This document shows, piece after piece, positions 4,855-31,719 of a DNA stretch of 45,115 bases. Position 1 is the stretch's first letter; each line of letters starts with the position of its first letter. Source of the DNA: Desulfobacterales bacterium (GTDB taxonomy: Bacteria > Desulfobacterota > Desulfobacteria > Desulfobacterales > JAHEIW01); the NCBI GenBank assembly GCA_050116155.1, contig JASFPE010000001.1, positions 1 through 45,115 of the forward strand, in the 5' to 3' direction. Under the pieces are notes generated by a model that was not told the DNA's origin, searched no databases, and was given only the letters and a program-made list of their open reading frames with translations. Both the position numbers and the translations under genes were made by a program.

Positions 4855-5017
4855 GCTGTTTCAAAATTGTAGATGGCATTCACGGGTTCGCCGCAGGCGG
4901 ACCGATGCGGTTTAAAAGCGGAGTCCCGGCTTACAGGGGGGTGAGCAGCTTATTTTAAACCGAATCGCAACGCAGTCCCGCCAACGGCGGGAACGCCAGA
5001 TGCAATTTTGAAACAGC
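4855..5017. repeat. About 163-nt nested-palindromic element closed by a perfect 15-bp inverted repeat
   Basis: gctgtttcaaaattg (4855-4869) is the exact reverse complement of caattttgaaacagc (5003-5017). An inner pair is cggtttaaaa / ttttaaaccg. Small GC hairpins are also present (cccgcc-aac-ggcggg). Confidence 0.6.
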
Positions 5018-5043
5018 TTTTAAACACCGTAGGGAGCGAACAG

Positions 5044-7020
5044 ATGGAAAAAAATACGTCATCAAATAGAGCGAATTCATTGGCTGAAATGCGTAAATTC
5101 ATAATCCCCTCCTATCTTATTGCCACTGTCGTCTATTTAATTTTTTCGCTACATTATTTCATGACCGGCTTGGGGGGAACCATGCTCCTTGGCGTAACTC
5201 TTGTGCCGATGGCCTACGTGCTGTGGGTATTGAATTTCTTTGTCGCCGGAGAGCTGCCGTATCCCCGTCTGGGACTTAAACCCAATATTGCCATCGCCGG
5301 CGTTTACATCGCTATGTGCATCTTTTCGCTCATATACATGCGCGTGGAGTTTGATGCCCTCATTTATGACAGAGCAGGTTTCTTCAACACGACTGACAAA
5401 ATCGTAGGAGCGATGATGCTGGGTCTCGTACTCGAATACACCCGCCGGGACCATGGCCTGCTCTTTTGGCTCATCCTGTTTCTCATGCTCTATTCCGTTT
5501 ACGGGCGGATTTTCCCGGGTATACTCGGTCATCCCGGCGTCTCCTGGACAAGAGTTATTACATCTTCTTCCATTGAGATCTCATTGGGCCTCTTTGGAAC
5601 GTATGCCCAGATCGGGGTCGGCGTTATCGCGGCATTTTTCATGTTTTTGGGAATTGCACAGGGATTTGGTGTTCAGGAATCTATTATCAAAACATTCACC
5701 GGGATATTTGCTAAACGTAAAAGCCTCATCCCCCAAACGGCGGTGGTGACTTCGATGGCAATTGCTACCTGTAGTGGATCGGGAGCAGCGAATGCAGCCA
5801 TCACCGGGCAATACACCATACCGTTGATGAAAAAAGCAGGTTTTCCCGCTCTTCACGCCGGTGCTGTGGAAGCTTCAGCTTCGCTAGGCGGCCTGCTCAT
5901 GCCACCGGTCATGGCAATCGCCGGTTTCCTCATGGCTGACTTTCTCGGCGTGACGTATTTCGAGGTTATCGCTCGGGGATATGCGCCGGCACTCATTTTC
6001 TTTGGCATCATATCCCTATCGGTTTACCTCTTTACAGCGCGCTTCCTGCGGGGAAAGGGAAGCCGCCCGGATTCAGCAGTGGTTTCCGTTATCGAAAGAT
6101 TCTCCAAAATGGACGTGGTCAACACGGCGGTGTTCTTTGCCTTCATCGGAGTTTTGATCTTTTTGATGGGTGTGCTTTGGTACGAAGCATCCAGAGCCGC
6201 ACTTAACATTGCGCTCGGTCTCTTTATCACCGCCTCCCTGTTCCGCATATATCTCCATCCCGGGACGATCTGGGATAAGATAAAGGAATGGGCGATGTGT
6301 TTGCGCCGGGCCTTAGAGGGATTTGCCGGAGTCACTGCTCCGCTGGTTCTCTTGCTCGCCATGCTCGGGGTGATGGTGAATATGTTCGTGGTTAGTGGAT
6401 GGATGATTAAGCTAATGGGACTGCTGGCAACGGTCGGAGAATTTCATGTCGTAGCCCTTATCGGAGTGGGGTTCGCCATTGGGGTCTTCTTAGGGCTGGG
6501 AATACCTCCGTCGGCCTGTTACATCCTCTCAGCTGTGATCGTCATCCCGCCGATGACACGAATCGGGATCAACCCCTGGGTAGCTCATTTCTTCTTATTT
6601 TTCATAGCGGTCATATCCGAATATTCGCCACCCACATCACTCGTGGCTGCGGTTGCTTCCCGTATTTCAGGTGCCTCCTTCATGAAGACGATGATGGTCA
6701 CGCTGCAAATATCTCTTCCTTTTTTCTTCCTCACATTCGCGATTTTCAATTGGGATATTTTGTTGTTAAAACCCGGTTGGGCACAACTGGCTGCTCTGGG
6801 TGTGCTAATAATTGGATGCTCGACAGCAGCTGCCGCCATCCACGGTAATCTTTTTAAACGTAAAATGTATGATCTTCCTGCAAGGTTTTTAGTCCTCCTG
6901 ATATCGCTATTTATCTTGTTCTATCCTAAAGGTATCCTTTCAGCATTGGCATTGATACCCGCCATAGCTATGATCGTCCTCGTGATTCGGCAGACTGAAA
7001 AAACATCGGTATCTTCTTAG
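5044..7020 (+). CDS. TRAP transporter fused permease (TAXI-associated, DctQM-like fusion)
   Basis: About 658 aa, highly hydrophobic and polytopic, directly downstream of the TAXI receptor. I chose ATG 5044 (GGGAG 6-7 nt upstream) over the ORF-track TTG at 5008, which lies inside the palindromic element. Confidence 0.8.
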   Translation: MEKNTSSNRANSLAEMRKFIIPSYLIATVVYLIFSLHYFMTGLGGTMLLGVTLVPMAYVLWVLNFFVAGELPYPRLGLKPNIAIAGVYIAMCIFSLIYMRVEFDALIYDRAGFFNTTDKIVGAMMLGLVLEYTRRDHGLLFWLILFLMLYSVYGRIFPGILGHPGVSWTRVITSSSIEISLGLFGTYAQIGVGVIAAFFMFLGIAQGFGVQESIIKTFTGIFAKRKSLIPQTAVVTSMAIATCSGSGAANAAITGQYTIPLMKKAGFPALHAGAVEASASLGGLLMPPVMAIAGFLMADFLGVTYFEVIARGYAPALIFFGIISLSVYLFTARFLRGKGSRPDSAVVSVIERFSKMDVVNTAVFFAFIGVLIFLMGVLWYEASRAALNIALGLFITASLFRIYLHPGTIWDKIKEWAMCLRRALEGFAGVTAPLVLLLAMLGVMVNMFVVSGWMIKLMGLLATVGEFHVVALIGVGFAIGVFLGLGIPPSACYILSAVIVIPPMTRIGINPWVAHFFLFFIAVISEYSPPTSLVAAVASRISGASFMKTMMVTLQISLPFFFLTFAIFNWDILLLKPGWAQLAALGVLIIGCSTAAAAIHGNLFKRKMYDLPARFLVLLISLFILFYPKGILSALALIPAIAMIVLVIRQTEKTSVSS

Positions 7021-7085: not shown

Positions 7086-7712
7086 TCAATGGTGTATCCG
7101 ACGTTCATTGCTGTCCGGATAAGGATACTCCATATGCCGGGCCGTAGCCCGGGCGATATTTTCACCGAAGTATCGGGCTACCACCTTGAGTGCCATATCG
7201 ATGCCCGCTGAGATGCCTGCCGACGTCACCACGTGGCCGTCTTCGACGACATGTTTTTGGAATTCCACAGTCACCTCCGGAAAGGCATCACGCATCCAGT
7301 TTAACGATCGCCAGTGAGTGGTCGCGTGCAGCCCGTTCAGCAGCCCGGCGAATCCCAACAGCATCGATCCGGTACAAACAGAAGTCAGTGTTTCGACTTC
7401 CGCTGCGCGAGCGCGCAGCCATTCAAGCATGGTCGGGTTGTTCAATTCCTTACGCGTTCCCCAGCCCCCGGGTACAACAAGGATATCAAGGGGAGGACAG
7501 TTCTCAAAAGTGTAATCTGGAATCACTTTCATGTTGCCTGTCGTCGTGACAGGCTCAGGATACTCAGCCACCAACCATACTTCAAAGGGTGCAGGTTCTT
7601 CTCTGCGCTTCTCTTCATTAAGACGAGCGACGGAGAAAACCTCAAACGGACCACAAAAGTCGAGCACTTCGATGTCTTCAAAAAGGACGATCCCAACACG
7701 TTTTTTCTCCAA
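7086..7712 (-). CDS. DJ-1/PfpI family protein (class I glutamine-amidotransferase-like fold)
   Basis: 208 aa. VGIVLFEDIEVLDFCGPFEVF and the nucleophile-elbow Cys in SVCTGSMLL. TTG start with GGAGG 6 nt upstream. Confidence 0.8.
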   Translation of the reverse strand: MEKKRVGIVLFEDIEVLDFCGPFEVFSVARLNEEKRREEPAPFEVWLVAEYPEPVTTTGNMKVIPDYTFENCPPLDILVVPGGWGTRKELNNPTMLEWLRARAAEVETLTSVCTGSMLLGFAGLLNGLHATTHWRSLNWMRDAFPEVTVEFQKHVVEDGHVVTSAGISAGIDMALKVVARYFGENIARATARHMEYPYPDSNERRIHH

Positions 7713-7954: not shown

Positions 7955-8890
7955 TCAGGCCTGGCTTTTTGCCATATAGGCTTCCAGTTTTCCGACGCCG
8001 AGGGAAAATGTCAGGGTCATCACCAGATACAGTGCGGTGATGGTAATCCAGATTTCGATGGTGAGATAGGTGGAGGCCATTAATTGCGTGCCCTGGTAGG
8101 ATAACTCCTGGATCGATATTACCGAAACGATGGCCGAGTCTTTGATCAGAGAGATGAACTGCCCGGCCATGGCCGGTAAGAGCCGTTGCATGGCCTGGGG
8201 CAGGATAATGTGCCGCATGGTATGATATTTTGACAGGCCCAGCGTATAGGAGGCTTCCCATTGACCTTTTTCCACCGATTCGATGCCGGCCCGCACGATT
8301 TCCGTGATATAGGCGCCTTCAAAAATGGCCAGCGTGAAAAGCGCTGAGATGAAAGCAGACGCGAATTGCGGCGGTGAAAAGAGCGCCGCAAACAGGCGCT
8401 GGGTTCCCGAAGAGCTGGATCTGAGAAAATCATCAAGACCGATGATCGGCATGATCTGGTCGCTGATGAAGAAATAGAAAATAAAGATAATAACCAAAGG
8501 CGGCAGGTTGCGCATGAGCTCGACATAGGAGCGCGCGATCATTCTGTGAAAGAGGCTTTTGCTGACCCGCAGCAATCCCATCGTGGTGCCGAGGATGATA
8601 GCCAGAAAGGTCCCCCAGAAGCTCAACCGCAGGGTGGTCAACAGCCCGTGGATCAGGTAGTTAGATACCCACTTTCCGGATTCGGCATCGTAACGAAAGA
8701 GATACTGGGGGATGATTCCCCATTGCCAGTTATAGTTGAGCTTGACTTTGACCTGATACACCACATACACCAGGGCACCAAGCAGCGCGAGCAATACAAA
8801 AACGTCAAGCGTCGTAATCTTACTTTTCTTTTGCAGCACAGTATTTCTCGTATTTCCTTTACAACAAAGAACTAGTGTTGTGTTTCGCAA
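7955..8890 (-). CDS. Polar amino-acid ABC transporter permease (HisM/GlnP family)
   Basis: 311 aa. It is a paralogue of 11038..11859, sharing NYNWQWG..PQYLF and the EAA-loop region GQWEASYTLGLS. The start codon is uncertain (TTG at 8890, no clear RBS). Confidence 0.8.
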   Translation of the reverse strand: MRNTTLVLCCKGNTRNTVLQKKSKITTLDVFVLLALLGALVYVVYQVKVKLNYNWQWGIIPQYLFRYDAESGKWVSNYLIHGLLTTLRLSFWGTFLAIILGTTMGLLRVSKSLFHRMIARSYVELMRNLPPLVIIFIFYFFISDQIMPIIGLDDFLRSSSSGTQRLFAALFSPPQFASAFISALFTLAIFEGAYITEIVRAGIESVEKGQWEASYTLGLSKYHTMRHIILPQAMQRLLPAMAGQFISLIKDSAIVSVISIQELSYQGTQLMASTYLTIEIWITITALYLVMTLTFSLGVGKLEAYMAKSQA

Positions 8891-8918
8891 GTAATCTATA
8901 AATCATGGCTTTATTTTA

Positions 8919-9000
8919 GGTTTCAGGTTTCGGGTGTCAGGTGTCAGGCCACGGGTCATCAGTTCGTAATCCTGACACCTGAACACTGACACCTGAAACC
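8919..9000. repeat. GTGTCAG/GTTTCAG heptamer-armed palindromic element
   Basis: Left arm ggtttcaggtttcgggtgtcaggtgtcagg (8919-8948). Right arm cctgacacctgaacactgacacctgaaacc (8971-9000). The outer 10 bp and inner 10 bp are complementary. A related copy is at 15060-15242. Confidence 0.8.
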
Positions 9001-9088
9001 CTAGACCTTGTGTTGTTTAAAGATCTCAACCGAACCCCAATATACTACACGACTTACGCAACATTTTTGTAGGTCATAATACTAAAAG

Positions 9089-9916
9089 CTATTCAATCAG
9101 ACTCTTCCAGTCCTTTGATTTGAACCAGTATGCGTATTTGCTTTGAATCCAACCGTTGTTTCGATTAATCTCAATCCAGTTGTTGATTAAGTTGATCGTA
9201 TCGACATCGCCTTTGCGCACACCAATGCCGATGGCCTCATACATCATGACTTCATCGTAAACCATGATGGTGTCCGGATAATCGATGGCCGTCGATGACG
9301 GCAGGGGTTGCGCAGAAACCATGGCGTGCACGTTTCCATTGCGCAGCTCCTGGACGGCCGCGGGTTCATCGTCAAATAAGCGGATTTTTGCCTTTGGAAA
9401 TTTTTGCTTGGCGGCAATTGCGGCCGTCGAACCCAACCTGGCGGCGATGGTGACATCGGGACTGTTGAAGTCGGAGACCTTAAAGCCGGCCGCTTTTTGT
9501 TTGTGCGCCATCAATCCCTGCTCCGTATAGTAATACGGTCTCGTGAAATTGATCTTGAGGTTTCGTTTGGTGGTGATGGTCATCCCACCGATCAGCACAT
9601 CAAACTTGCCGGTAATCAGGGCAGGGATAATCCCGGACCATTTCGTAGGCACAAACTCCACCTTGACGCCCAAATCCTCGGCCAGCTTTTTGGCGATATC
9701 GATCTCAAAGCCGATCAACTCACCTTTTTTATCTTTCATGGCCCAGGGCACGAAAACGTCCATCCCCACCTTAATGACGCCGCGCTTGGCGATCTGCTCG
9801 ATGGCGCTTTCTGCGGTCAGCTTTCTTTGGGTTTCCCCGGCAGAAGCCGTGGCAGCCAGGCCCAAGATAACCACACAAACCAGAACCATTCCTGAAACGA
9901 ATACTCTTTTTTTCAT
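9089..9916 (-). CDS. Polar amino-acid ABC transporter substrate-binding protein (family 3)
   Basis: 275 aa. Signal peptide MKKRVFVSGMVLVCVVILGLAATASA, strong RBS AAGGAGGG, and a typical SBP_bac_3 core (GFEIDIAKKLAEDLG...IPALITGKFDVLIGGMTIT). Confidence 0.85.
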   Translation of the reverse strand: MKKRVFVSGMVLVCVVILGLAATASAGETQRKLTAESAIEQIAKRGVIKVGMDVFVPWAMKDKKGELIGFEIDIAKKLAEDLGVKVEFVPTKWSGIIPALITGKFDVLIGGMTITTKRNLKINFTRPYYYTEQGLMAHKQKAAGFKVSDFNSPDVTIAARLGSTAAIAAKQKFPKAKIRLFDDEPAAVQELRNGNVHAMVSAQPLPSSTAIDYPDTIMVYDEVMMYEAIGIGVRKGDVDTINLINNWIEINRNNGWIQSKYAYWFKSKDWKSLIE

Positions 9917-9978
9917 TATGCCCTCCTTTTCAATAAGCTAGCTTTGATGAACTCTTAATAAGTCATTTTAATGTCTGG

Positions 9979-10213
9979 ATACCCGCCTTCGCGGGTATGA
10001 CTGCCTAGTTTCTATTTCATATTTATTTTTTTATTGTCATTCCCGCTTAGCAGACTGTGTCGTAATTCACAAAAGCGCTTAAATTCCGCCTGTCATGCCG
10101 GACTCGATCCGGCATCCAGTTGCATAATAATCTGAAAAAACTCTGGATTCCGGGTCAAGCCCGGAATGACAAAACAGCAATATGTGTCGTTTTGTCGATT
10201 ACGACACAGTCTC
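9979..10213. repeat. Composite hairpin-rich element inside the ABC operon
   Basis: Three 8-bp hairpins: atacccgc-cttc-gcgggtat (9979-9998), atgccgga-ctcga-tccggcat (about 10095-10115) and attccggg-tcaag-cccggaat (about 10146-10166). They share gtcat/atgac flanks. The last two lie between the arms of a perfect 14-bp inverted repeat, gactgtgtcgtaat (10053-10066) / attacgacacagtc (10199-10212). Confidence 0.7.
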
Positions 10214-10263
10214 CTAGTCAGGAATCCAGAAAACGAAATTTCACCTCCTTTCATCCTCTTTTT

Positions 10264-11016
10264 CTATAAAATCTGGCTGAGAAAAAGCTTTGTCCGCTCT
10301 TTCTGCGGGTTTGTGAAAAAATGCTCTGCCGTGCCTTCCTCGACAATATAGCCATCTTCCATAAAAATCACCCGGTCGCTGACTTCACGGGCAAATCCCA
10401 TTTCATGGGTTACCACGATCATGGTCATTCCTTCTCCGGCAAGGTTTTTCATAACGTCCAAAACTTCACCGATCATTTCAGGATCGAGAGCCGACGTGGC
10501 TTCATCGAACATCATGACTTTCGGATGCATTGCCAGGGCCCTGGCAATTGCCACCCGTTGCTGCTGCCCCCCGCTAAGCTGCGAAGGGTAACTGTCTGCC
10601 TTCTCCGGAATATTGACTTTCTTCAGGAGGTCCATGGCCATCTCTGTGGCCTCATCGTTGCTTTTTTTACGCACAAGCTTTGGGGCCAGGGTTATGTTTG
10701 CGAGCACGGTCTTATGGGGAAACAGATTAAACGACTGGAAAACCATTCCGACCTCTTTGCGGATCTCCCAACGGTTTTTCTTTTTTTCGTCAAGCGGGAC
10801 ATTGTCGATAACGATCGAGCCGCTATCGATCTCTTCCAATCCATTGAGACAACGCAAAAAGGTGGATTTCCCCGAACCGGACGGTCCGATGATGACCACC
10901 ACTTCACTGCGGCGTATTCTGGTGGAAAAGTCTCGCAAGGCACAAACGCCGTTGGGAAAGGTCTTGTTGATTTTGTCCACCGTAACGATATAATCACCGA
11001 GTTTCTTTTCTTGCAC
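10264..11016 (-). CDS. Polar amino-acid ABC transporter ATP-binding protein (GlnQ/HisP-like)
   Basis: 250 aa. Walker [10 protein letters not shown], signature [15 protein letters not shown], Walker [16 protein letters not shown] start with GGAGG 8 nt upstream. Confidence 0.92.
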
Positions 11017-11037
11017 CGACCGGTCCTCCCTGTGATA

Positions 11038-11859
11038 TTATGTCTGAATCCTGAATCGACTTTCCAGGAAATTGACAACAATAGATAGGGTTATCGTGAT
11101 AACCAGGTACATAAACGCAATCGTAAACCAGATCTCAAATGTCAGGAATGTTTCGGCGATAACCGCCCGGCCTTCCATGGTCAAATCATAAATAGCGATC
11201 GTGCTGACAAGGGCCGAGTCTTTGATCAAAGATATCGCCTGACTCGTCAGGGGCGGGAGAATGCGCCGGATCGCCTGGGGAAGGATGATGCAGCGGTATG
11301 TATCGAAGATACTAAAGCCCAGGCTGTGCGAGGCTTCCCACTGACCTTTGTGAATGGACACGATTCCCGCACGGAAAATCTCTGAGGCATAAGCTCCCTC
11401 AAAAAGGCTGAGTGCGATGACGCCTGCAGCAAAGCGGCTGAGGCCAAAAATGGGTGCCAGCACGAAGTAAAGGAAAAAGATTTGAACCAGCAGCGGGGTA
11501 TTTCGGATGAGCTCCAGATACGCCCTGGCAACGATTCTGGCAAATAAGGAGTCGGACAGGCGCAAGAGGGCGGTTACCAAACCGATGGTCATCGACAAAA
11601 CAAGGCCCCAGGCCGTAATGCGAAAGGTCATCACCAGGCCGAACATCAGGGGGCCGAAGAAAAATTCACCGTCTTGGAATTGAAATATATATTTGGGAAC
11701 CTGATACCATTGCCAGTTATAGCCGAGTTGCTGCGTGCCGCGAGCCATCACCCAGATCAGTACTGCCACCACCACCAAAAATTTGGTAATATCCATCACC
11801 GGAGAACGCTTCAGCCTCAACCAGTTCTGTTTGTATGATGGGGACATGCTAACTTCCAT
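11038..11859 (-). CDS. Polar amino-acid ABC transporter permease (second copy)
   Basis: Polytopic, with NWQWYQVPKYIF and GQWEASHSLGFS blocks like 7955..8890. The start is ambiguous: TTG 11868, ATG 11859 or ATG 11847. Confidence 0.8.
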   Translation of the reverse strand: MEVSMSPSYKQNWLRLKRSPVMDITKFLVVVAVLIWVMARGTQQLGYNWQWYQVPKYIFQFQDGEFFFGPLMFGLVMTFRITAWGLVLSMTIGLVTALLRLSDSLFARIVARAYLELIRNTPLLVQIFFLYFVLAPIFGLSRFAAGVIALSLFEGAYASEIFRAGIVSIHKGQWEASHSLGFSIFDTYRCIILPQAIRRILPPLTSQAISLIKDSALVSTIAIYDLTMEGRAVIAETFLTFEIWFTIAFMYLVITITLSIVVNFLESRFRIQT

Positions 11860-11916
11860 AGCCGACAATCAAGCCTTTGGAAAGGAAATTTTTGCTTTTT
11901 GTGGTATAAGTTTTTC

Positions 11917-13386
11917 TTATACGTCAAAGTTTTTGTTTAAAAGTGCTGTCTTTGCTTTTTTCCCAATTGCGGCGATGTTTTGCTGTACATCCGCCGGCAG
12001 GGATTCGCACGCATGGGATTTTAGGATCTCAATCGCCTTGCGGGTCACAATTTCACCATAGGTTTTTTGGCCTTCATCTTGCCAATGATTGAGACTGGCA
12101 CGGTTGGCAAACATGGGTCGCCAGTGCTCCTGTCGGTGGAGTTTGAGAGTCTGCGCTGAGGTGAGAAAATCGCCGCCCGGACCTACCTTCCGGATGACGT
12201 CCATGTCGATCCGATCCGCCCCGATAGCAAAGCCGTGTATTATTTTTTTGACATAACTGATGATTTCGGCACCCATCACGATTGCAGCCGGTGAACCGAT
12301 CAGCCCCTGGCCCAAATAACCAACGTCATGGACCAGGTTTGCACCATCCAGCGCGGCCATGAGTAGTGAAACGGATGCCTCCATACCTGCCTGCTGATCC
12401 AGGCAGTTGGCATCACTGACACCGGCTGTTCCCCACATGGGAATTTCATAATAATGGTAAAGATCTGCGCAGGCTGATAACGCCAACCGATATTCCGGGC
12501 ATGCATAGATTGGTGCCCCGGTTAACATGTCCATCGTGGAGATACCAAACCCGGAGATAATGGGCGCGCCTTTTGCCATCAATTGATGAAGCACAACGCC
12601 GCTCAATGCTTCGGCATTGGCAACGGTGATGGCGCCGGCCAGGGTCACCGGTCCGCTGGCGCCTGCAAGCATCCCCGGGGTATAGGTGACCGGAACTCTC
12701 TTTACGGCGCACAGAAAAAGCTTTTGCAATGCGCTGGAGGAGTGTGTCAGGGGACTCGTTGGTTCTGAATAATGAATTAAGAATGGCTTATGTCGCAGCC
12801 GATCTTTGCCCCCGGCGACGGCCTCTGCCATCTCGATGATGATAGCAAGGTCTTCTGAGCCGGCGGCCGTGAAAAAAATAGGTTTTATGGAATTTTCCAA
12901 CTCTGCTCTGAAGGACTCAATGTAAGCCAGATTGGCCGGAATATCTTGAGGATGGGCATAAGAAGCGATAAAATCAATATCCTCGAAATAATCGGCTATT
13001 CTGGCTGCATTGACAACGTCTTGCAACCGAGATGATCTTAATATACCGGTTTCCAGATCATAAGTTTCAAGAAGGTCTGTTCCCAGACCAAAGTGGACCT
13101 TATTTCCTTTCAGCTGCATGGCCTTAGCGGCATTGCGGTTGTATATAGTGATACTGGCAGGTGCGCTGTGAATGCAGGATTCCACCAACCCGCTGGGAAT
13201 CTGAATGTTACCATGGCCGTTTATCCGGCATCCGGCATTTTTCAGGAGTTGAATGCCTTCCGGGTGCATGATGCTAACGCCGATGTTCTCCAGAAGTTGT
13301 AGTGTCGCTTTATGAATTTCTTTGATTTGACCTTCAGTGAGGATCCGGTAGTTTGGAATGCACTGAGATCCAAAGCCCGTATTCAT
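11917..13386 (-). CDS. MttB-superfamily (trimethylamine methyltransferase family) corrinoid methyltransferase, non-pyrrolysine
   Basis: About 489 aa from ATG 13386 (GAAGGGGG RBS 7 nt upstream). Length and blocks are typical of the MttB family. The ORF is uninterrupted, with no in-frame TAG. It is adjacent to a corrinoid protein gene. Confidence 0.8.
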   Translation of the reverse strand: MNTGFGSQCIPNYRILTEGQIKEIHKATLQLLENIGVSIMHPEGIQLLKNAGCRINGHGNIQIPSGLVESCIHSAPASITIYNRNAAKAMQLKGNKVHFGLGTDLLETYDLETGILRSSRLQDVVNAARIADYFEDIDFIASYAHPQDIPANLAYIESFRAELENSIKPIFFTAAGSEDLAIIIEMAEAVAGGKDRLRHKPFLIHYSEPTSPLTHSSSALQKLFLCAVKRVPVTYTPGMLAGASGPVTLAGAITVANAEALSGVVLHQLMAKGAPIISGFGISTMDMLTGAPIYACPEYRLALSACADLYHYYEIPMWGTAGVSDANCLDQQAGMEASVSLLMAALDGANLVHDVGYLGQGLIGSPAAIVMGAEIISYVKKIIHGFAIGADRIDMDVIRKVGPGGDFLTSAQTLKLHRQEHWRPMFANRASLNHWQDEGQKTYGEIVTRKAIEILKSHACESLPADVQQNIAAIGKKAKTALLNKNFDV

Positions 13387-13594: not shown

Positions 13595-14977
13595 TCAAAA
13601 TGGAAATTCGATTCCCATTTCAGACAGTTCATCTTTTACGCGATGATACATATCAAGATGTTCCGGAGTTGGAAGGGCCGAGGCCACATCGTAACATTCC
13701 TGATATTCTTTACCCTTGGGGGCATCTGCCGCGTTGTCTTCGTATTTCGACAAAAGCCTCAGGGCCAGCTCGTTGGCCTGTTCTCTTGTCATACCCTGTC
13801 GCGCAACCGCATGGCCTACCTCCATGCCAATCCTTGCCTCCAGCGGTGTTGCCCGATTTCTGTATTTATTGCGAGCGGAAGCCATTTCCCACAGGTGCCA
13901 TCCCGATACCGTGCTGACCAGGGCATGGCAGGCGGTTTCGTAAAAGACCATATCCGTCATGGGACCCGCATTTGAAAATCCGTTAGAGGTGTTGAGGAGT
14001 TTGCTGTTACGCGCCATGGCCTGGCCGGCCATACTAATCGGCCAAAGCAGTTCCCGGGTCGTATTGGAACCCCAATGGAGGTGAAAAGGGAAATGTTGGT
14101 TATAGATGGCTCCATGGATGCACAGGCCGCTGAGGCTGTAGGCGACCAGCGTCACGGCAACCCCTTCTGAGCCCAGACACCAGCCCCCGTATATAGGACC
14201 CGTGAGATTGCCGGTATAGCATCCATATTGGGCATAATGAACCACCCGGTTCAGCAGTGTATCGGCCGTTTTGAACTCGGAAAGCGTTCCAACCAGTCGT
14301 GAGTCTGTCGTTCGTACGCCCCACTCATTGTCGGACACGGCAATCTGGCCGGTGTCGTGTTCGGCGGTTCCGACGGCTACAAAAAATACCCCCGGTCGAC
14401 CGACTTGCTTGGCAGCCAGTCGAAGGTTGTAAATATGCTGGGTACAACCGTTGATTTCGGTGGGGGAGCCGGATGAGATCTTCTGGCCCATGGTATCCTC
14501 CAGGATGGGGGCACAAAAACCATCCAAAAGGGGCTCTTTAAGATAGGCGAGGCATATGGAATGGTGAAGATTCTCATCGCAGGTGATGTCCGGGCTGAAG
14601 ATGCAAAACGGCGGCTGCGGGTCCTCGACCTGGCGGTGTTTCCATAAGACCGCATCTTTTCCGGCACCCACCCAGTATGCGCCTTTTATCAGGTAGAGCG
14701 CCTCTTTGATTTCATCGTCTGAGACCTTGATGACGCGATGGGTGTCTGTGTTGTAAAGGCCCACGTCACGAAACAGCTCCCATCCGGCCTGCCACAGCCG
14801 GTCGGCCTGATCGTCGTCCGTGGGCAGGGGGATTTCAGGATCGTATTTTATCTCATACTTTTTTATGACTTCCTGAAGCTTGGGGGTGAATATTTTAGGC
14901 AAGAAATCATCTTCTTCACAATGTGGACCCGTATGGGATCGCTGCAGAATCTCCCAGAGACGGTAGGGGGTGGACAT
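13595..14977 (-). CDS. MtmB-family (monomethylamine methyltransferase-like) protein lacking pyrrolysine
   Basis: 460 aa with AAGGAGG 7 nt upstream of the ATG. Blocks recalled from archaeal MtmB: GLYNTDTHRVIKVSDDEI, GRPG (residues 193-196), HWGSNTTRE, and C-terminal GKEYQECYDV..TPEHL. The ORF is uninterrupted. Confidence 0.75.
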   Translation of the reverse strand: MSTPYRLWEILQRSHTGPHCEEDDFLPKIFTPKLQEVIKKYEIKYDPEIPLPTDDDQADRLWQAGWELFRDVGLYNTDTHRVIKVSDDEIKEALYLIKGAYWVGAGKDAVLWKHRQVEDPQPPFCIFSPDITCDENLHHSICLAYLKEPLLDGFCAPILEDTMGQKISSGSPTEINGCTQHIYNLRLAAKQVGRPGVFFVAVGTAEHDTGQIAVSDNEWGVRTTDSRLVGTLSEFKTADTLLNRVVHYAQYGCYTGNLTGPIYGGWCLGSEGVAVTLVAYSLSGLCIHGAIYNQHFPFHLHWGSNTTRELLWPISMAGQAMARNSKLLNTSNGFSNAGPMTDMVFYETACHALVSTVSGWHLWEMASARNKYRNRATPLEARIGMEVGHAVARQGMTREQANELALRLLSKYEDNAADAPKGKEYQECYDVASALPTPEHLDMYHRVKDELSEMGIEFPF

Positions 14978-15059
14978 GGTAAGGCCTCCTTACGTTTACA
15001 TTAATGCAATGATATGTGTATCAGTCAAATCACAAGCAGATTACCACAACTAATATTTA

Positions 15060-15242
15060 AGGTTTCAGGTTTCAGGTGTCAGGATTCAATAATTGAGGAA
15101 TTGAGGGATTTAGGAATTAGAATGACAGAATACCTTCAATACCTAAATTCCTGAATTTTTACCCCGTGAAATGCGAAGCCGATTTCACCGGGGCGCAATT
15201 CCTAAATTGGCCTGCTGACACCTGACACCTGACACCTGAAAC
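15060..15242. repeat. GTGTCAG/GTTTCAG heptamer-armed nested palindromic element (long copy)
   Basis: Outer arms are ggtttcaggtttcaggtgtcagg (15060-15082) and cctgctgacacctgacacctgacacctgaaacc (15210-15242). Inner arms are built from gaggaatt/aggaatt versus aattcct units. A central hairpin is ccccgtgaaat...atttcaccgggg. Confidence 0.8.
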
Positions 15243-15293
15243 CAAGAAAACCTGTTAAGACTGGCTAAGATATAATTTATTGAACGATGAGAT

Positions 15294-15932
15294 TTACGGC
15301 TTTTTTAAAAGTTCCTCCATCATTTTGGGAGCAGAGGTTGCATTTTCGCAATAAAGATCTGCGCCGATCATTTCCGCCCACTCCGGTCCCGTCGGTGCGC
15401 CACCAATGACGACTTTGTATTGATCTCTGAGCCCTTTTTCTTTTAGGAGTTCGATAATTTCCTTCTGTCCTGGCATGGTGGTGGTCATCAGCGATGATGC
15501 CCCGATGATATCCGCCCCCATGGCCTCCGCTTCCTTGATAAAAGTCAGTGAATCCACGTCATATCCCACATCTTTTACTTCGAATCCATTGGTCTCGAGC
15601 ATCAACTTCACAATATTCTTTCCAATTTCATGCAGATCACCTTTCACTACACCCAGGACGACTTTACCTTTGGAAGCCCCCTGTTCGCCGCTCTCCTGGA
15701 TCTTGGGGCGGATAATATCGACAACAGCTGTTAAGGCTTCTCCGGATAGCATTAATTGAGGCAGAAATATTTCCAGGCGGGCGAACAGCTCGCCAAGTTT
15801 GTTCATCGTTTCGGTAAGCGCGGCAATCATCTGGAGCGGATCATTGCCTTCTTCCAGAAGTTTACGGGCTATATCTTCGGCTTCACTTGTATTTCCGGAT
15901 TCCACAGCTTTGCAAAGCGTTTTGAATGGCAT
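15294..15932 (-). CDS. Cobalamin-binding corrinoid protein (MtmC/MttC/MtgC-like)
   Basis: About 212 aa from ATG 15932 (GGGAGG RBS 7 nt upstream). B12-binding DxHxxG motif in GDLHEIGKNIV, followed by a Rossmann-like GADIIGASSLMTTT block. Confidence 0.88.
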   Translation of the reverse strand: MPFKTLCKAVESGNTSEAEDIARKLLEEGNDPLQMIAALTETMNKLGELFARLEIFLPQLMLSGEALTAVVDIIRPKIQESGEQGASKGKVVLGVVKGDLHEIGKNIVKLMLETNGFEVKDVGYDVDSLTFIKEAEAMGADIIGASSLMTTTMPGQKEIIELLKEKGLRDQYKVVIGGAPTGPEWAEMIGADLYCENATSAPKMMEELLKKP

Positions 15933-16259
15933 AGTTAAACCTCCCTGTAACCCTAGGTTGCGCAAATTTTATAACTCATTTTGCACCACCTGCCAGTCCT
16001 TGTATACTTTGGCCGGTTTGCAAGTCAGAATATTGCGAGGCCAACAGGCGAAAGGAATGGTTATTTACCACAGGCGGGGCGGGTGGACAAAACGGGCTAA
16101 AACCTATAACGATCTTCTTTTGTTTGTCAATCGAAAATAAAGTTTTGTTAGCAGACCAACATAGGCTGTTGCGGCAATGAGCGCATCGCTCAGTCCATCT
16201 TTTGCTTGACCCGCCAGAGCTATTTCTCTATTAGTTTGCACGAAAGGGGGTATACTTCG

Positions 16260-17450
16260 ATGAATGCGAATATTTTCACGACCATCTTACCCAGGCAAGT
16301 ACATTTTGGATTCGGGGCCATCGAACTGGTTGGCGAAACGGCTAACGCACTTGGCGCCAAACGTGTTTTTATTGTTGCCGACCCGGGAGTGATTACCGCC
16401 GGACTGGTCGAACCCATCGCGGCTTCGCTCAAGGCTGCAAATCTATCCTATGTCGTCTACGACAAAGTGGTGCCCAATCCCGACACGCAATCGGTGGATG
16501 CGGCCGTCGGGGCGTTTGGTGACAGTCGCGCAGATCTTATCATTGGTCTTGGCGGAGGCAGCGGGCTGGATACTGCTAAAGCCGTAAGCCTGGTGGCCGG
16601 AGGCCCGCCGCAAGGCTGTGTGGCGGAATACTCGCCTTTTCTTGACGAGGCCAGCCGACCGATTCCCGCACCCAAAGATCTGCCCCCTGTCATCGCCATT
16701 CCCACCACTGCCGGTACCGGTAGCGAGGTTACCCCGTGGGCGATTATCACAGACACTGGGGCCAAATGTAAATTCGGGGTTGGCGGCGGTTCGGCCACGG
16801 TACCGACCGTTGCGCTGGTCGACCCCGAATTAACCTTGACGTTGCCATCATTTCTTACCGCGGCCACCGGCATTGATGCCCTCTCTCACTGTATCGAAGC
16901 CTATGTGTCAACCAATGAAAATCCGATGCTGGATCCGATGATTCTTTACGGGATTGAACTGATAGGTCGAAGTCTGCGGCTGGCCGTGGCCCAGGGAGAT
17001 AATCATGATGCCCGGCGAGACGTCATGCTGGGCTCGTTGATAGGCGGTATTGGAATTACGTCCAAGTGGCTTGGCGCTTGCCACGCGCTGGCGCATCCGC
17101 TTTCCAGCCTGGCCGGTATCCAGCATGGGATTGCCAACGCGTTGATGTTGCCCCACCAGATGGCTTACAGCCTGCCAGCTGCGTTGGATCGATATGCCCG
17201 CATCGCCGGGGCACTGGATATACCAAAGGCGGTCAGTGGGACAGTTCGGCAGCAGGCTAAGCAAGCCGTTGAGGCTGTCCGAGAACTGGCTGTGGACACA
17301 GGTTTGCCCACCCATCTGCGAGATGTCGGCGTTACCCCCGAAATGATTCCGGAGCTGGCGGCCGGCGCTTACCAGGACCGGAACTGGCCCAGTAATCCCC
17401 GCAGCGTCTCCCAGGAGGTCATGGAACAGTTGTATCGCCAGGCTTTATAG
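16260..17450 (+). CDS. Iron-containing alcohol dehydrogenase family protein
   Basis: About 396 aa from ATG 16260 (AAAGGGGG RBS). GGGSGLDTAKAV and the His-rich C-terminal metal site (ALSHCIEA, CHALAHPL). Confidence 0.85.
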   Translation: MNANIFTTILPRQVHFGFGAIELVGETANALGAKRVFIVADPGVITAGLVEPIAASLKAANLSYVVYDKVVPNPDTQSVDAAVGAFGDSRADLIIGLGGGSGLDTAKAVSLVAGGPPQGCVAEYSPFLDEASRPIPAPKDLPPVIAIPTTAGTGSEVTPWAIITDTGAKCKFGVGGGSATVPTVALVDPELTLTLPSFLTAATGIDALSHCIEAYVSTNENPMLDPMILYGIELIGRSLRLAVAQGDNHDARRDVMLGSLIGGIGITSKWLGACHALAHPLSSLAGIQHGIANALMLPHQMAYSLPAALDRYARIAGALDIPKAVSGTVRQQAKQAVEAVRELAVDTGLPTHLRDVGVTPEMIPELAAGAYQDRNWPSNPRSVSQEVMEQLYRQAL

Positions 17451-18491: not shown

Positions 18492-19679
18492 TCATAAAAC
18501 CGGCCGATCCAGCATCTCGAGATGTAGTTTTTTCCCGGTATAGGGATGCTTGGCGGCCACCTCTTCATCGAGTTCGACGCCCAGCCCGGGGTTTTTCGGC
18601 GGTACAATATATCCTTGTTCCCATTGGATTGGCGCTTTCAGAATCTCGGCGTGGAAACCGTCCCAGGTTTTAATACCTTCCTGTATCAGGAAATTGGGGC
18701 TGCAGGTATCTATTTGAATATTTGCGGCGCCTTCAATCGGTCCACAATACAAATGTGGCGCTATCTGGGCGTAGTGGGCTTCCGCCATGCCGGCAATCTT
18801 TTTGGCTTCAAGTATCCCGCCAACTCTCCCCAGGGCCATCTGCAGTATGGTTGCCGCCTGTTGCTCAAGCAATCTTGCAAACTCATATTTTGTGGTGAGC
18901 CGTTCACCGGTTGCGATGGGGATGCTGGTCGAACAGGCCACCCGGGCCATTTCTTCTACTTTTTCTGGAGGCACCGGTTCCTCAAACCACAATGGATCGA
19001 AGGGTTCCAGGCGCCTGGCTAAGCGAATGGCACTGGAGGTGGTCATCTGACCATGGGTTCCAATAAGTAGATCGCAATTGTCACCGACGGCCTCTCGCAC
19101 CGTTTTGATAAATCTTTCCGCCTGCTCCAACGCTTCCAGAGACAATTGGCGGGGATCAAAGGCGGAATAGGAACCTAACGGGTCAAATTTTACGGCAGTG
19201 AAGCCCTGATTCACATAGTCTGCCGCTCTTTCTGCTGCCAGTTCCGGATCTCTGTACACGTCTGTTTTATCAGTATTTTGTGGATAGATATAAGTGTACG
19301 ACCTGAGTTTTTCATGCACCTGGCCGCCCAGCAATTCATAGATTGGCTTGTGTAGTTCTTTGCCGACAATGTCCCAGCATGCCATTTCAATGCCGCTGAG
19401 TACCCCCATCAGTGACAGGTCCGGGTGTTGGGTGTAGCCGCTGGAATAAATAATTCGCCACAAGCGTTCTATCTTGAAGGGGTCAGCTCCCAAAACACTT
19501 CGTTCACAAACGTCCTCAATCATACGCGCCACAATGTGTGGATGAAACGGCACCGAATAAACCTCTCCGAACCCCGCTACTCCGCCGTCGGTAGTGAGTT
19601 TTAGAAATACCCAGTAAAGTCCGCCGAAATGGGGTGGCGGATTTTCGACCACATAAGTTTGGACATCGGTTATTTTCAT
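18492..19679 (-). CDS. Enolase-superfamily enzyme (mandelate racemase / acid-sugar dehydratase-like)
   Basis: About 395 aa from ATG 19679 (MKITDVQTYVV...). GFGEVY N-terminal capping domain and a barrel with LLIGTHGQ, WFEEP and ATGERL metal-ligand blocks. Confidence 0.8.
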   Translation of the reverse strand: MKITDVQTYVVENPPPHFGGLYWVFLKLTTDGGVAGFGEVYSVPFHPHIVARMIEDVCERSVLGADPFKIERLWRIIYSSGYTQHPDLSLMGVLSGIEMACWDIVGKELHKPIYELLGGQVHEKLRSYTYIYPQNTDKTDVYRDPELAAERAADYVNQGFTAVKFDPLGSYSAFDPRQLSLEALEQAERFIKTVREAVGDNCDLLIGTHGQMTTSSAIRLARRLEPFDPLWFEEPVPPEKVEEMARVACSTSIPIATGERLTTKYEFARLLEQQAATILQMALGRVGGILEAKKIAGMAEAHYAQIAPHLYCGPIEGAANIQIDTCSPNFLIQEGIKTWDGFHAEILKAPIQWEQGYIVPPKNPGLGVELDEEVAAKHPYTGKKLHLEMLDRPVL

Positions 19680-19911
19680 GAGTCGCTGTCCTTTGTTAAA
19701 GGGTGAAGAACGGGTCACAATTACTTTGATTTTTAGTCATTTACATAAGCTTTTGGCAAAGTCAATATGAATGGGATGTTATTAAATTATTTTGATCTGC
19801 CATCTGATTTTTGTATACTAACCTTGACTGCTGAAAAGGCGATATGATATTCAGCTTTTCATGAAGAAATGTGTTAACCCTTAAAAAGTGGGTGCCACAT
19901 GAGATGAATAG

Positions 19912-27056: not shown

Positions 27057-27117
27057 GATTCAGGTCCTTTATGATCTGTTGCGTTTTTTTTGAAATCAGT
27101 GGATTTCAATCGAGACC

Positions 27118-28044: not shown

Positions 28045-28131
28045 GGGAAATAGCAATCTCCATTACATCCCATCGCCGGTAGGTATTACCTCTCAAACAG
28101 ATCGATCATGAAATTTGACGGAGATCAGCGC

Positions 28132-30528: not shown

Positions 30529-30590
30529 CGTTATTCTCCTATTTTATCTTATTATGAAACTATCTATCTGCTGCGCCTTGCTTCAATGGA

Positions 30591-31550: not shown

Positions 31551-31719
31551 AAGATTCATCTCCTTTCATTAAAACGGGGTCACGACTGCCCGTTCGTTTA
31601 CTGTATCTATACTTTGAATGATAAAGATTTGCAACCGTACTGGCTCTGAACCAAATATCGGGGCCGATAAACGTTAAATCTTTTTGAAGGTGTTATGGTT
31701 TTTTTCAGGTGGAGAATGA

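Follow-up and report, generated by a model that had tools for sequence, protein, structure and literature searches.

MtmB from M. barkeri (1L2Q/1NTH; EC 2.1.1.248) is a TIM-barrel enzyme of methylamine methanogenesis that carries pyrrolysine (Pyl202), encoded by UAG, and has its cognate corrinoid protein encoded adjacently. Its family contains more than 1000 clusters at 50% identity that are non-Pyl MtmB homologues, and most of the 1,061 family sequences treated in PMC13044021 are likewise non-Pyl and of unknown function. One of them has been assigned substrates: MtqB from Methanococcoides methylutens Q3c demethylates tetramethylammonium and choline (PMC13044021, March 2026), which shows that the MtmB fold can be used with cationic methyl donors besides monomethylamine (MMA). 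The quaternary amine in MtqB is surrounded by conserved Met/Cys and aromatic residues, the Methanococcoides MtqB homologues are 78–87% identical to each other, and with MMA in the absence of Pyl the enzyme shows a low activity of 11 nmol/min/mg (PMC13044021). The MttB superfamily provides a further set of related systems. MtgB, MtpB, MtcB and MtyB follow a logic of substrate-specific methyltransferase (MT1), corrinoid protein, MT2 and RamA-type activase, by which anaerobes strip N-methyl groups from osmolyte-like amines, likewise without pyrrolysine.

Here, we describe an MtmB-like gene for which a similar logic is proposed. It lies in a 45-kb window, by which we mean the whole stretch of DNA that was analysed, and an MttB-superfamily paralogue is encoded right beside it. 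The relevant features are:

13595..14977, minus strand: non-pyrrolysine MtmB-family methyltransferase (MT1), 460 aa, ATG start, no in-frame stop
15294..15932, minus strand: cognate corrinoid protein, 212 aa from ATG 15932; PF02310 and PF02607
11917..13386, minus strand: non-pyrrolysine MttB-superfamily methyltransferase, 489 aa from ATG 13386; PF06253, 341 bits
7955..11868, minus strand: polar-amino-acid-type ABC importer, four genes (Pfam), listed next
11038..11868, minus strand: permease of the importer (Pfam)
10264..11016, minus strand: ATPase of the importer (Pfam)
9089..9916, minus strand: SBP_bac_3 binding protein of the importer (Pfam)
7955..8890, minus strand: second permease of the importer (Pfam)
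2130..3323, plus strand: M20D amidohydrolase/carboxypeptidase; PF01546; TIGR01891 amidohydrolase, 358 bits (cut-off 154)

The longest ORF of the corrinoid protein starts at TTG 15965, while gene callers start it at 15932, and the longest ORF of the MttB paralogue extends to 13446.

An MtmB-family protein without pyrrolysine

The product of gene 13595..14977 is an MtmB-family protein of full length, and its reading frame contains no UAG. The Pfam profile PF05369 matches the protein far beyond chance with 310.5 bits (E 2.4e-92; cut-off 25 bits), covering residues 7–456 and profile positions 3–450 of 450, and phmmer against PDB MtmB gives an E value of 1e-60; there is no NCBIfam match. A sequence-only reading of the locus had described an unbroken 460-codon ORF with AAGGAGG 7 nt 5' of the ATG, which we confirm (cgtAAGGAGGccttaccATG, the reverse complement of 14978..14994); it had left unstated that the gene lies on the minus strand. 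All MtmB blocks quoted there are found in the translation: GLYNTDTHRVIKVSDDEI as residues 73–90, GRPG as residues 193–196, HWGSNTTRE as residues 301–309 and GKEYQECYDV...TPEHL at the C-terminus. The blocks TDTHR, GRPG, PI(F/Y)GG(Y/W), WGSxTTRE and QECYDV are common to this protein and M. barkeri MtmB, and the two have the same length.

The AF2 model (pLDDT 95, pTM 0.93) has the MtmB TIM-barrel fold. Foldseek aligns it to 1NTH with TM 0.95/0.95 and an rmsd of 1.4 Å over 455 columns. The suggestion of a non-Pyl enzyme with the MtmB fold is therefore borne out by profile, alignment to 1L2Q and model, and the fold is related to MtmB, not foreign to it. The MttB superfamily, in contrast, belongs to PF06253 and reaches a Foldseek TM of about 0.5 at 11–15% identity.

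The difference to MtmB lies in sequence and at the pyrrolysine position. Identity in the structural alignment is 28%, and X202 (Pyl202) of 1L2Q aligns with Val200, whose codon is GTA (14378..14380). The Pyl motif of 1L2Q reads GRPGMGVXGPE, as given in the sequence-only reading. The equivalent stretch consists of sense codons, again as described; its position, first given as about 14370–14390, is exactly 14366..14401, which codes for GRPGVFFVAVGT. There is no in-frame UAG at the Pyl202 equivalent, no tRNA genes were found within the 45-kb window, and no pyl genes (pylT/pylS/pylBCD) occur among its annotated ORFs. GPETSLSA of MtmB is replaced by AVGTAEHD and H228 by Arg, and both E229 and E259, which we take to be acidic neighbours of Pyl, are replaced by Leu. 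Conservation scored over 188 clade members shows that F198, V200, AVGTAEHD at 201–208, R227 (His in MtmB and MtqB), L258 (Glu259 in MtmB, Cys in MtqB), W266 and C267 are invariant or nearly so. Val at the Pyl position is 98% conserved within the clade, and about 180 of the 460 positions of the clade alignment reach at least 98% conservation. Pyl would be dispensable because the site that holds it in MtmB has been rebuilt in this protein. MtqB also carries Val at the Pyl column and is encoded directly after its corrinoid protein, but the residues around the site differ. Its segment DGCMCPIMGGY aligns with GNLTGPIYGGW; that this segment holds the conserved Met/Cys and aromatic positions which line the amine site of MtqB is an assumption, as PMC13044021 numbers logo positions only.

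A separate clade and its gene neighbourhoods

By sequence comparison, the protein is placed outside the MtqB clade, in a tight, separate and mostly Desulfobacterales clade of its own (at least 71% identity). The 120 relatives listed are 71–91% identical to it and nearly all 460 aa long; those with names are mostly Desulfobacterales, Desulfobacula or Desulfococcaceae, and their database name is 'monomethylamine:corrinoid methyltransferase'. Just one cluster (P0121, 54%) among 1.84 billion 50%-identity representatives exceeds 38% full-length identity. In the neighbour-joining (NJ) family tree the clade forms a separate long branch, and MtqB is found near the Pyl-containing MtmBs on the opposite side. 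Identity to P0309 from M. methylutens is 29%. P0309 was obtained by profile search and stands for the MtqB clade; it may differ from the exact Q3c protein. It has 459 aa and follows a 216-aa corrinoid protein (locus L088), lengths that match the proteomics table of PMC13044021, and its computed mass is 49432 Da compared to 49382 Da for MtqB in that table. A genome-contig scan for Methanococcoides MtqB returned only Methanomassiliicoccales-type MtmB loci (L011–L087). The protein does not fall into a clade with a characterised substrate, in agreement with the sequence-only reading; the further statement there, that no non-Pyl enzyme of the MtmB fold has an assigned substrate, is outdated by MtqB (PMC13044021).

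Gene context was surveyed in 84 clade loci, with 44 loci of at least 8 kb (long loci) and 76 loci with enough flank; ORFs were clustered without removal of overlapping ORFs. At least 69 of the 76 loci with enough flank have, as the next gene upstream and in the same orientation, one for a corrinoid protein. In the window it matches TIGR02370 (methyltransferase cognate corrinoid protein) with 200 bits and carries the cobalamin-binding DxHxxG motif as GDLHEIG, so that the neighbouring corrinoid protein proposed earlier is confirmed. MttB occurs in 27 of the 44 long loci. About 25 other loci have an orthologue of 11917..13386 (54–70% identical) beside their MtmB-like gene, and two or three copies at one locus are common. 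The nearest solved relative of this paralogue is the glycine betaine methyltransferase MtgB (2QNE/9YCE, 235 bits), and it is predicted to be, probably, a second MT1 acting on the same corrinoid protein.

Further partners recur less often. Aminotransferase/IorA/ADP-forming acyl-CoA synthetase (ACS) genes occur in 20 of the 44 long loci, with aminotransferase plus Frd/NadB-like flavoprotein in 9 loci and aminotransferase, IOR and ACS together in about 12; IorA scores below its NCBIfam cut-off (562 vs 651 bits). MtaA/CmuA-type URO-D proteins are found in 11 long loci and in L173–L177, directly downstream of the MtmB-like gene; the MT2 of related clade loci is thus of MtaA/CmuA type, unlike in MttB-type systems. 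RACo/RamA-like genes are present in L174, L175 and L177. The SBP_bac_3 importer accompanies 13 of the 44 long loci. The importer of the window has orthologues, arranged in the same gene order, in L112, L115 and L177, which are hut-linked (SBP 55–58%, ATPase 79–81% identical), and the best NCBIfam hit of its SBP is the Lys/Arg/Orn binding-protein family with 141 bits, below cut-off.

Hut genes or a HutC-like regulator (below its NCBIfam cut-off, 127 vs 220 bits) occur in 8 of the 44 long metagenome loci and in L174–L177. On the tree, such contexts turn up in three separate subclades and alternate with the other contexts. The clearest examples are L134, L175 and L177. In L134, genes for a dipeptidase-like amidohydrolase, corrinoid protein, MtmB-like protein, HutH, HutU, FtcD, a cyclohydrolase-like protein and HutI follow each other on one strand with short gaps, and the Hut assignments are well above their cut-offs, given in brackets: HutH 717 bits (524), HutU 900 (375), FtcD 385 (221) and HutI 479 (298). 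In L175 from Desulfobacula sp., one arm contains HutU, HutH, HutI, FtcD, FTCD_C, LysE and a RACo/RamA-like activase, and the divergent arm contains the HutC-like regulator, corrinoid protein, MtmB-like gene and URO-D. The same ABC importer follows on contig L176, which overlaps with L175. In L177, RACo and HutH are divergent from HutC-like regulator, corrinoid protein, MtmB-like gene, URO-D, CobW and ABC importer. L175 and L177 encode no MT1 besides the MtmB-like protein, and removal of one methyl group should therefore be enough to give the Hut substrate.

Within the 45-kb window, hut genes, a URO-D or pterin-type MT2 and a RamA-like activase are all absent from the annotated ORFs, so the histidine link for 13595..14977 comes from relatives that are 71–82% identical. 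No riboswitch or other Rfam family was found in the window, and the scan for promoters and terminators stayed at background level. M20 genes are present in 6–8 clade loci, and orthologues of the M20D enzyme (66–79% identical) adjoin the pair of corrinoid protein and MtmB-like gene in L097 and L158. We tentatively count this enzyme as a member of the system; it may cleave N-acyl or peptide conjugates and so free the methylated amino acid.

Proposed substrate of the clade and rival explanations

The location of the MtmB-like gene inside histidine-breakdown clusters of related sulfate-reducer genomes indicates that the protein probably demethylates a methylated histidine. Drawing entirely on gene context, we assign a probability of about 0.5 to a role as methyl-histidine:corrinoid methyltransferase whose product would enter histidine catabolism. 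Family, fold, lack of Pyl, separation of the clade and the gene associations are shown directly, while we infer which substrate is used, in which direction the methyl group flows and what the partner genes do. The earlier proposal that the substrate is an N-methylated amino acid and not free monomethylamine agrees with it. The named candidates sarcosine, N-methylproline and N-methylalanine have no support in the neighbourhoods, where the catabolic genes that recur are those of histidine utilisation and of arylpyruvate type.

In the proposed mechanism, the protein would be the substrate-specific MT1 of a corrinoid-dependent demethylation system in a sulfate-reducing, Desulfobacterales-like deltaproteobacterium. 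The importer encoded downstream would bring in an amino-acid-like methylated compound, the MtmB-fold TIM barrel would bind it, and its N-methyl group would be transferred to the Co(I) corrinoid protein encoded directly upstream. An MT2 of MtaA/CmuA type, known from related genomes, could hand over the methyl group, with tetrahydrofolate and the Wood–Ljungdahl pathway as its presumed destination, and a RACo/RamA-type activase, also from related genomes, could re-reduce oxidised corrinoid. The likeliest substrate would be mono-N-methylated L-histidine with L-histidine as product. It could be one of the ring-methylated forms, 1- or 3-methylhistidine, with anserine, balenine or muscle protein as source, or else N-alpha-methylhistidine. 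Histidine might then be degraded via HutH, HutU, HutI and FtcD, or alternatively via transamination, arylpyruvate:ferredoxin oxidoreductase and ADP-forming acyl-CoA synthetase. The adjacent MttB paralogue would probably use the same corrinoid protein for a related compound that is quaternary or bears more methyl groups. As a methyl donor, a protonated N-methylimidazole would be positively charged and its leaving group neutral. It would resemble in this the quaternary amines used by all characterised non-Pyl relatives, and the likeness would account for a reaction that does without Pyl. Those partners that occur more often than hut genes (class I aminotransferase, Frd/NadB-like flavoprotein, IOR and ACS) would suit other amino acids, aromatic ones or aspartate, equally well, and a substrate with a single methyl group leaves the role of the tightly associated MttB orthogroup unexplained.

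The contexts are heterogeneous: 9 loci have the flavoprotein, about 12 have IOR/ACS and about 8 have hut genes. They could instead reflect a general N-alpha-methyl-amino-acid:corrinoid methyltransferase, which is the idea of the sequence-only reading. Such an enzyme would bind the N-methyl-alpha-amino-acid head group whatever the side chain, so that sarcosine, N-methylalanine, N-methylaspartate or N-methyl aromatic amino acids might all be used, and the contexts would represent different downstream fates. The clade-invariant R227 and E206/H207/D208 lie close to where Pyl was and could hold an alpha-carboxylate and an ammonium group, and families acting on N-substituted or cyclic amino acids adjoin sister clades (Ldh_2 in L172, OCD/mu-crystallin in L169). 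Identity of 71–92% across all contexts, together with the high number of conserved positions, argues for one substrate, however, and the hut contexts are spread through three subclades. Catabolic genes for glycine, alanine and proline do not recur near the clade loci. Without Pyl-like activation, a protonated secondary amine donates its methyl group poorly, as is known from MtmB chemistry. We therefore regard the general enzyme as an unlikely explanation. The MttB orthogroup would gain a role if histidine betaine (hercynine) were demethylated stepwise to histidine on one corrinoid protein, with MttB taking the first methyl group or groups and the MtmB-like protein the last one from N-alpha-methylhistidine. 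The co-occurrence in about 25 loci fits this scheme, the non-Pyl MttB members that have been characterised all have betaines or other quaternary amines as substrates (PMC13044021), and the hut link of L134, L175 and L177 applies equally. The most complete hut-linked loci, L175, L177 and L163, have no MttB within reach, though, and the dimethyl step has no evident enzyme. Ergothioneine and hercynine genes are absent, the urocanase is a true HutU (900 bits vs 638–685 for thiourocanate hydratase), and a literature search found no such pathway. The stepwise scheme appears improbable to us.

The two readings closest to described enzymes fare worse. Family and fold are shared with MtmB, the relatives carry the monomethylamine:corrinoid methyltransferase name in their sources, and the activity of non-Pyl MtqB with MMA (PMC13044021) implies that some MMA activity of the present protein is possible. 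As a statement of its function, a Pyl-independent monomethylamine:corrinoid methyltransferase is nevertheless very unlikely. Pyl202 is replaced by Val and the presumed acidic neighbours by Leu, no NCBIfam model matches, the importer is of amino-acid type and not an ammonium/methylammonium carrier, and MMA is neither made nor used by the neighbouring pathways; the context is bacterial amino-acid catabolism, unlike that of MtmB. For an MtqB-like tetramethylammonium/choline methyltransferase speaks that MtqB is the only characterised non-Pyl MtmB and shares the Val. This window also encodes a divergent Fe-ADH, whose best NCBIfam hit is choline dehydrogenase GbsB (sub-threshold), and a DJ-1-domain protein (7086..7712) similar to GbdR, a choline regulator, in the N-terminal half of the latter. 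Neither neighbour is conserved in any of the 83 other loci, and the choline reading of the window was rejected because they are unique to this locus. With the distant clade position, the low identity to P0309, the exchanged DGCMCPIMGGY segment, and the importer and hut link pointing to an apparent amino-acid substrate, we consider an MtqB-like function highly improbable.

A betaine-epimerase (HpbD-type) or (hydroxy)proline-betaine pathway was considered for the enolase-superfamily genes 18492..19718 and 25905..27056 and the glycyl-radical enzyme 28132..30528, and dropped. The best PDB relatives of the enolases, 4E4U and 3BJS, are uncharacterised or acid-sugar-dehydratase-like. The glycyl-radical enzyme scores 385 bits for hydroxyproline dehydratase compared to 471 for CutC and 454 for glycerol dehydratase, and these genes adjoin the MtmB-like gene in no other locus.

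A possible role of methylated histidine in anaerobic methylotrophy

Animal tissue is rich in methylated histidines, which it contains in anserine, in balenine and, as 3-methylhistidine, in actin and myosin. To our knowledge, no microbial route for their demethylation has been described, and a literature search found none. We tentatively raise the possibility that the clade represents the first corrinoid-dependent, Pyl-independent methylhistidine demethylase, converting 1- or 3-methylhistidine to histidine and a C1 unit in marine sulfate reducers. If true, marine sulfate reducers, gutless-worm symbionts among them, would have a so far undescribed anaerobic route for the use of animal-derived methylhistidine, and anaerobic methylotrophy would be extended by a further substrate class through the corrinoid route of Desulfobacterales. 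The MtmB fold could then take a methyl group from an imidazole nitrogen, and the non-Pyl MtmB homologues, a family almost entirely uncharacterised, would gain a second function. The widespread annotation as monomethylamine:corrinoid methyltransferase would be corrected, and metagenome surveys that use mtmB as a marker for methylamine use or methylotrophic methanogenesis would miscount members of this clade.

A pyrrolysine-free member of the MtmB family

The MtmB-like gene is located on the minus strand (13595..14977). As the sequence-only reading had claimed, it is an uninterrupted open reading frame, with an ATG start, 460 codons, no internal stop and AAGGAGG placed 7 nt before the ATG, and all peptide blocks quoted in that reading are found in it. 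The Pfam family PF05369 (MtmB) spans the whole protein (310.5 bits, E 2.4e-92), and among solved structures only those of M. barkeri MtmB1 (1L2Q, 1NTH, 1TV2-4; E 1e-60) are related to it by sequence. GRPGMGVXGPE of MtmB aligns with GRPGVFFVAVG of the window protein, and therefore pyrrolysine (Pyl) 202 corresponds to Val200, whose codon is GTA (14378..14380). The AlphaFold2 model, built from 59 sequences with a mean pLDDT of 95, superimposes on MtmB with a TM of 0.95 and an rmsd of 1.4 A; for the MttB and MtgB structures the TM is only about 0.5. Family match, Val200 and fold confirm that the protein has the MtmB fold and lacks pyrrolysine.

The window protein belongs to a tight clade of at least 120 relatives. 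Those listed are 71-91% identical to it, nearly all 460 aa long and annotated as 'monomethylamine:corrinoid methyltransferase'; the named ones are mostly Desulfobacterales, Desulfobacula, Desulfococcaceae or 'Thermodesulfobacteriota' MAGs. Beyond the clade, a single 50% cluster (P0121, 54%, including an Aminicenantes MAG) exceeds 38% full-length identity. Counted over 188 clade members, F198, V200, the run A201-V-G-T-A-E206-H207-D208, R227, L258, W266 and C267 are nearly or fully invariant. The surroundings of the former Pyl have thus taken on a form specific to this clade. MtmB and its homologue MtqB carry His in place of R227, whereas L258 is replaced by Glu259 in MtmB and by Cys in MtqB. 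The Arg and the Glu-His-Asp triad gained in the clade could hold the carboxylate and the ammonium or imidazole group of an amino acid.

Relation to MtqB and other non-Pyl homologues

The premise of the sequence-only reading, that no substrate assignment is known for a non-Pyl MtmB-fold enzyme, no longer holds. Kashyap et al. (Front Microbiol, March 2026, PMC13044021) showed MtqB of Methanococcoides methylutens Q3c to be a non-Pyl MtmB homologue that uses tetramethylammonium (37 nmol/min/mg), choline (42 nmol/min/mg) and, weakly, monomethylamine (11 nmol/min/mg) to methylate cob(I)alamin. Of the 1,061 sequences in their MtmB-family tree, the majority lack Pyl and have no known function. When grown on dichloromethane, 'Ca. 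Formimonas warabiya' induced a non-Pyl MtmB-superfamily protein more strongly than any other protein (PMC9768040). Our own family search (E up to 1e-3) gave 1,065 clusters at 50% identity; among the best 150, about 125 are full-length without stop codon, and nearly every kind of residue occurs in the Pyl column. Lacking Pyl is therefore nothing unusual for an MtmB homologue, and with MtqB published the claimed uniqueness was overstated.

A profile search located the MtqB clade, which includes P0311 from Methanococcoides sp. AM1 and P0309 from M. methylutens (CP199767.1). P0309 is 459 aa long and follows a corrinoid protein of 216 aa, and both lengths agree with the proteomics table in PMC13044021. 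P0309 and the window protein share 29% identity. Neighbour-joining places the MtqB cluster (P0252) close to the branch with M. barkeri MtmB, and the window clade on a long branch on the opposite side. The window clade is therefore not one with an already characterised substrate, the case that the sequence-only reading had held against its inference. In M. methylutens CP199767.1 (L088, 4337..9631) the MtqC-MtqB-like pair (216 aa and 459 aa) occurs twice in tandem, with a diverged N-terminus in the second MtmB-like copy.

Gene neighbourhoods of the window and its clade

On the minus strand, the order of transcription is corrinoid protein, gap, MtmB-like gene, MttB-superfamily gene and ABC importer.

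Features of the window around the MtmB-like gene
300..1922, plus: molybdopterin oxidoreductase, farther away
2130..3323, plus: M20D amidohydrolase, farther away
3677..4759 and 5008..7020, plus: TAXI-TRAP transporter, farther away
7086..7712, minus: DJ-1/PfpI protein (208 aa), resembling the N-terminal half of GbdR/FtrA regulators
7955..11868, minus: polar-amino-acid-type ABC importer (permease, ATPase, SBP_bac_3, permease)
11917..13386, minus: non-Pyl MttB-superfamily gene, next after the MtmB-like gene
15294..15932, minus: corrinoid protein (B12-binding_2 and B12-binding, motif GDLHEIG)
16206..17450, plus: Fe-ADH, divergent from the corrinoid-protein gene

The untranslated gap (14978..15293) measures 316 nt, with a median of 87 nt in relatives; it matches no Rfam family and shows no convincing terminator. 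The 45-kb window has no methylcorrinoid:acceptor methyltransferase (MT2), RamA-type activase, histidine-utilisation (hut) genes, tRNA or Rfam match. The best NCBIfam match of the Fe-ADH is choline dehydrogenase GbsB, at 320 bits under a cut-off of 550; neither it nor the DJ-1/PfpI gene is kept in the other 83 loci. A separate minus-strand cluster (25905..31559) encodes an enolase-superfamily protein (best PDB match 3BJS), an FMN-dependent 2-hydroxyacid dehydrogenase and the following pair.

27118..28056, minus: radical-SAM activase
28132..30528, minus: glycyl-radical enzyme (best PDB matches choline TMA-lyase 9F3W, 471 bits, and glycerol dehydratase 1R8W, 454 bits)

We compared the window with 80 metagenome loci (75-92% identity to the query) and 3 genome or MAG loci; all ORFs were clustered and recurrent clusters annotated. 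In at least 69 of the 76 loci with enough flank, the gene immediately upstream on the same strand encodes a corrinoid protein.

Partners in the 44 loci of at least 8 kb (HutC and IorA annotations score under curated cut-offs)
27: MttB-family gene
20: class I aminotransferase, IorA-like oxidoreductase or ADP-forming acyl-CoA synthetase
13: SBP_bac_3 importer
11: MtaA/CmuA-type URO-D methyltransferase
8: hut genes or HutC-like GntR/UTRA regulator

One MttB orthogroup, 54-70% identical to the window copy, recurs in about 25 loci. M20 amidohydrolases recur too, as do 2-hydroxyacid dehydrogenases, an SBP_bac_5 transporter, a Frd/NadB-like flavoprotein and a molybdopterin oxidoreductase paired with a 4Fe-4S protein; this oxidoreductase with its partner, and M20 genes, lie beside the corrinoid protein-MtmB-like pair among L158, L160, L097 and L173. 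Several genomes have two paralogous copies of this gene pair adjoining, frequently with intervening MttB genes (L004, 5499..11383; L106; L136; L111), one example being Desulfobacterales bacterium CP070697.1; this suggests more than one substrate or step. By contig names only, L130, L142 and L143 (Ga0056128, Ga0056107, Ga0056115) look like gutless-worm (Olavius) symbiont metagenomes; given this putative origin, a methylated amino acid supplied by the host would be a fitting substrate.

In locus L134, one strand carries with short gaps a permease, a dipeptidase-like amidohydrolase, the corrinoid protein, the MtmB-like gene, HutH (717 bits, cut-off 524), HutU (900, 375), FtcD (385, 221), a cyclohydrolase-like gene and HutI (479, 298). 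In L175 (Desulfobacula sp.), one arm encodes HutU, HutH, HutI, FtcD, FTCD_C, LysE and a 660-aa RACo/RamA-like activase; the divergent arm encodes a HutC-like regulator, the corrinoid protein, the MtmB-like protein, a 233-aa protein of unknown function and URO-D, after which permease-ATPase-SBP_bac_3-permease follow in the overlapping contigs L173 and L176. In L177, RACo and HutH diverge from a HutC-like regulator, the corrinoid protein, the MtmB-like protein, URO-D, CobW and the same importer. The window importer is syntenic with importers of hut-linked loci and orthologous to them (SBP 55-58%, permeases 56-72%, ATPase 79-81% identical). Hut-linked loci fall into three separate subclades, interleaved with other context types.

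The 233-aa protein is conserved in Desulfobacula loci (L173 2703..3404, L174 9620..10321, L176 4926..5627), where its gene is flanked by those for the MtmB-like protein and the URO-D MT2; it has no Pfam match and a Cys-rich C-terminus (CSSCRMAGC). A sister clade with His at the Pyl column (L172, 1451..8102) shows the order corrinoid protein, MtmB-like, tautomerase, class I/II aminotransferase, Ldh_2-family dehydrogenase, HisI and HisG, an amino-acid context, possibly histidine.

Proposed function

The window protein is very probably the substrate-specific methyltransferase (MT1) that methylates the adjacent corrinoid protein. Its physiological substrate is likely to be other than free monomethylamine, and an N-methylated amino acid or close derivative is favoured with somewhat less confidence. 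To this extent the substrate inference of the sequence-only reading is reasonable; the candidates it named, sarcosine, N-methylproline and N-methylalanine, are not those the context supports. The MtmB-like protein is the sole MT1 within reach in L175 and L177, and therefore one demethylation should yield the compound on which histidine ammonia-lyase acts. The mechanism with the best support is that a corrinoid-dependent system demethylates mono-N-methylated histidine to L-histidine, to which we assign a probability of about 0.5. The window protein would act as MT1 and the upstream corrinoid protein as methyl carrier, an MtaA-type MT2 and a RamA-type activase would be supplied from elsewhere in the source genome, and L-histidine would enter the Hut pathway or transamination followed by an arylpyruvate-type ferredoxin oxidoreductase and an ADP-forming acyl-CoA synthetase.

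The odds that the substrate is a methylated histidine, with the methyl group on a ring nitrogen or on the alpha nitrogen, are roughly even. The histidine link is indirect for the window, which lacks hut genes; across the clade, hut genes occur in a minority of loci, and the commoner partners are generic for amino-acid catabolism. Ring-methylated histidines are attractive candidates on two inferred grounds: they would be abundant in animal detritus, and a protonated N-methylimidazole would be a positively charged methyl donor that leaves as a neutral group, as do the quaternary amines on which all characterised non-Pyl relatives act. A mono-methyl substrate leaves the tightly associated MttB paralogue without explanation; this paralogue may act on a related quaternary compound, for example hercynine. 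Our literature search returned no report of methylhistidine demethylation or of an MttB-type hercynine reaction. The interest lies in a well-populated, misannotated Desulfobacterales clade, whose candidate function, methylhistidine demethylation feeding histidine catabolism, is apparently undescribed, specific and testable.
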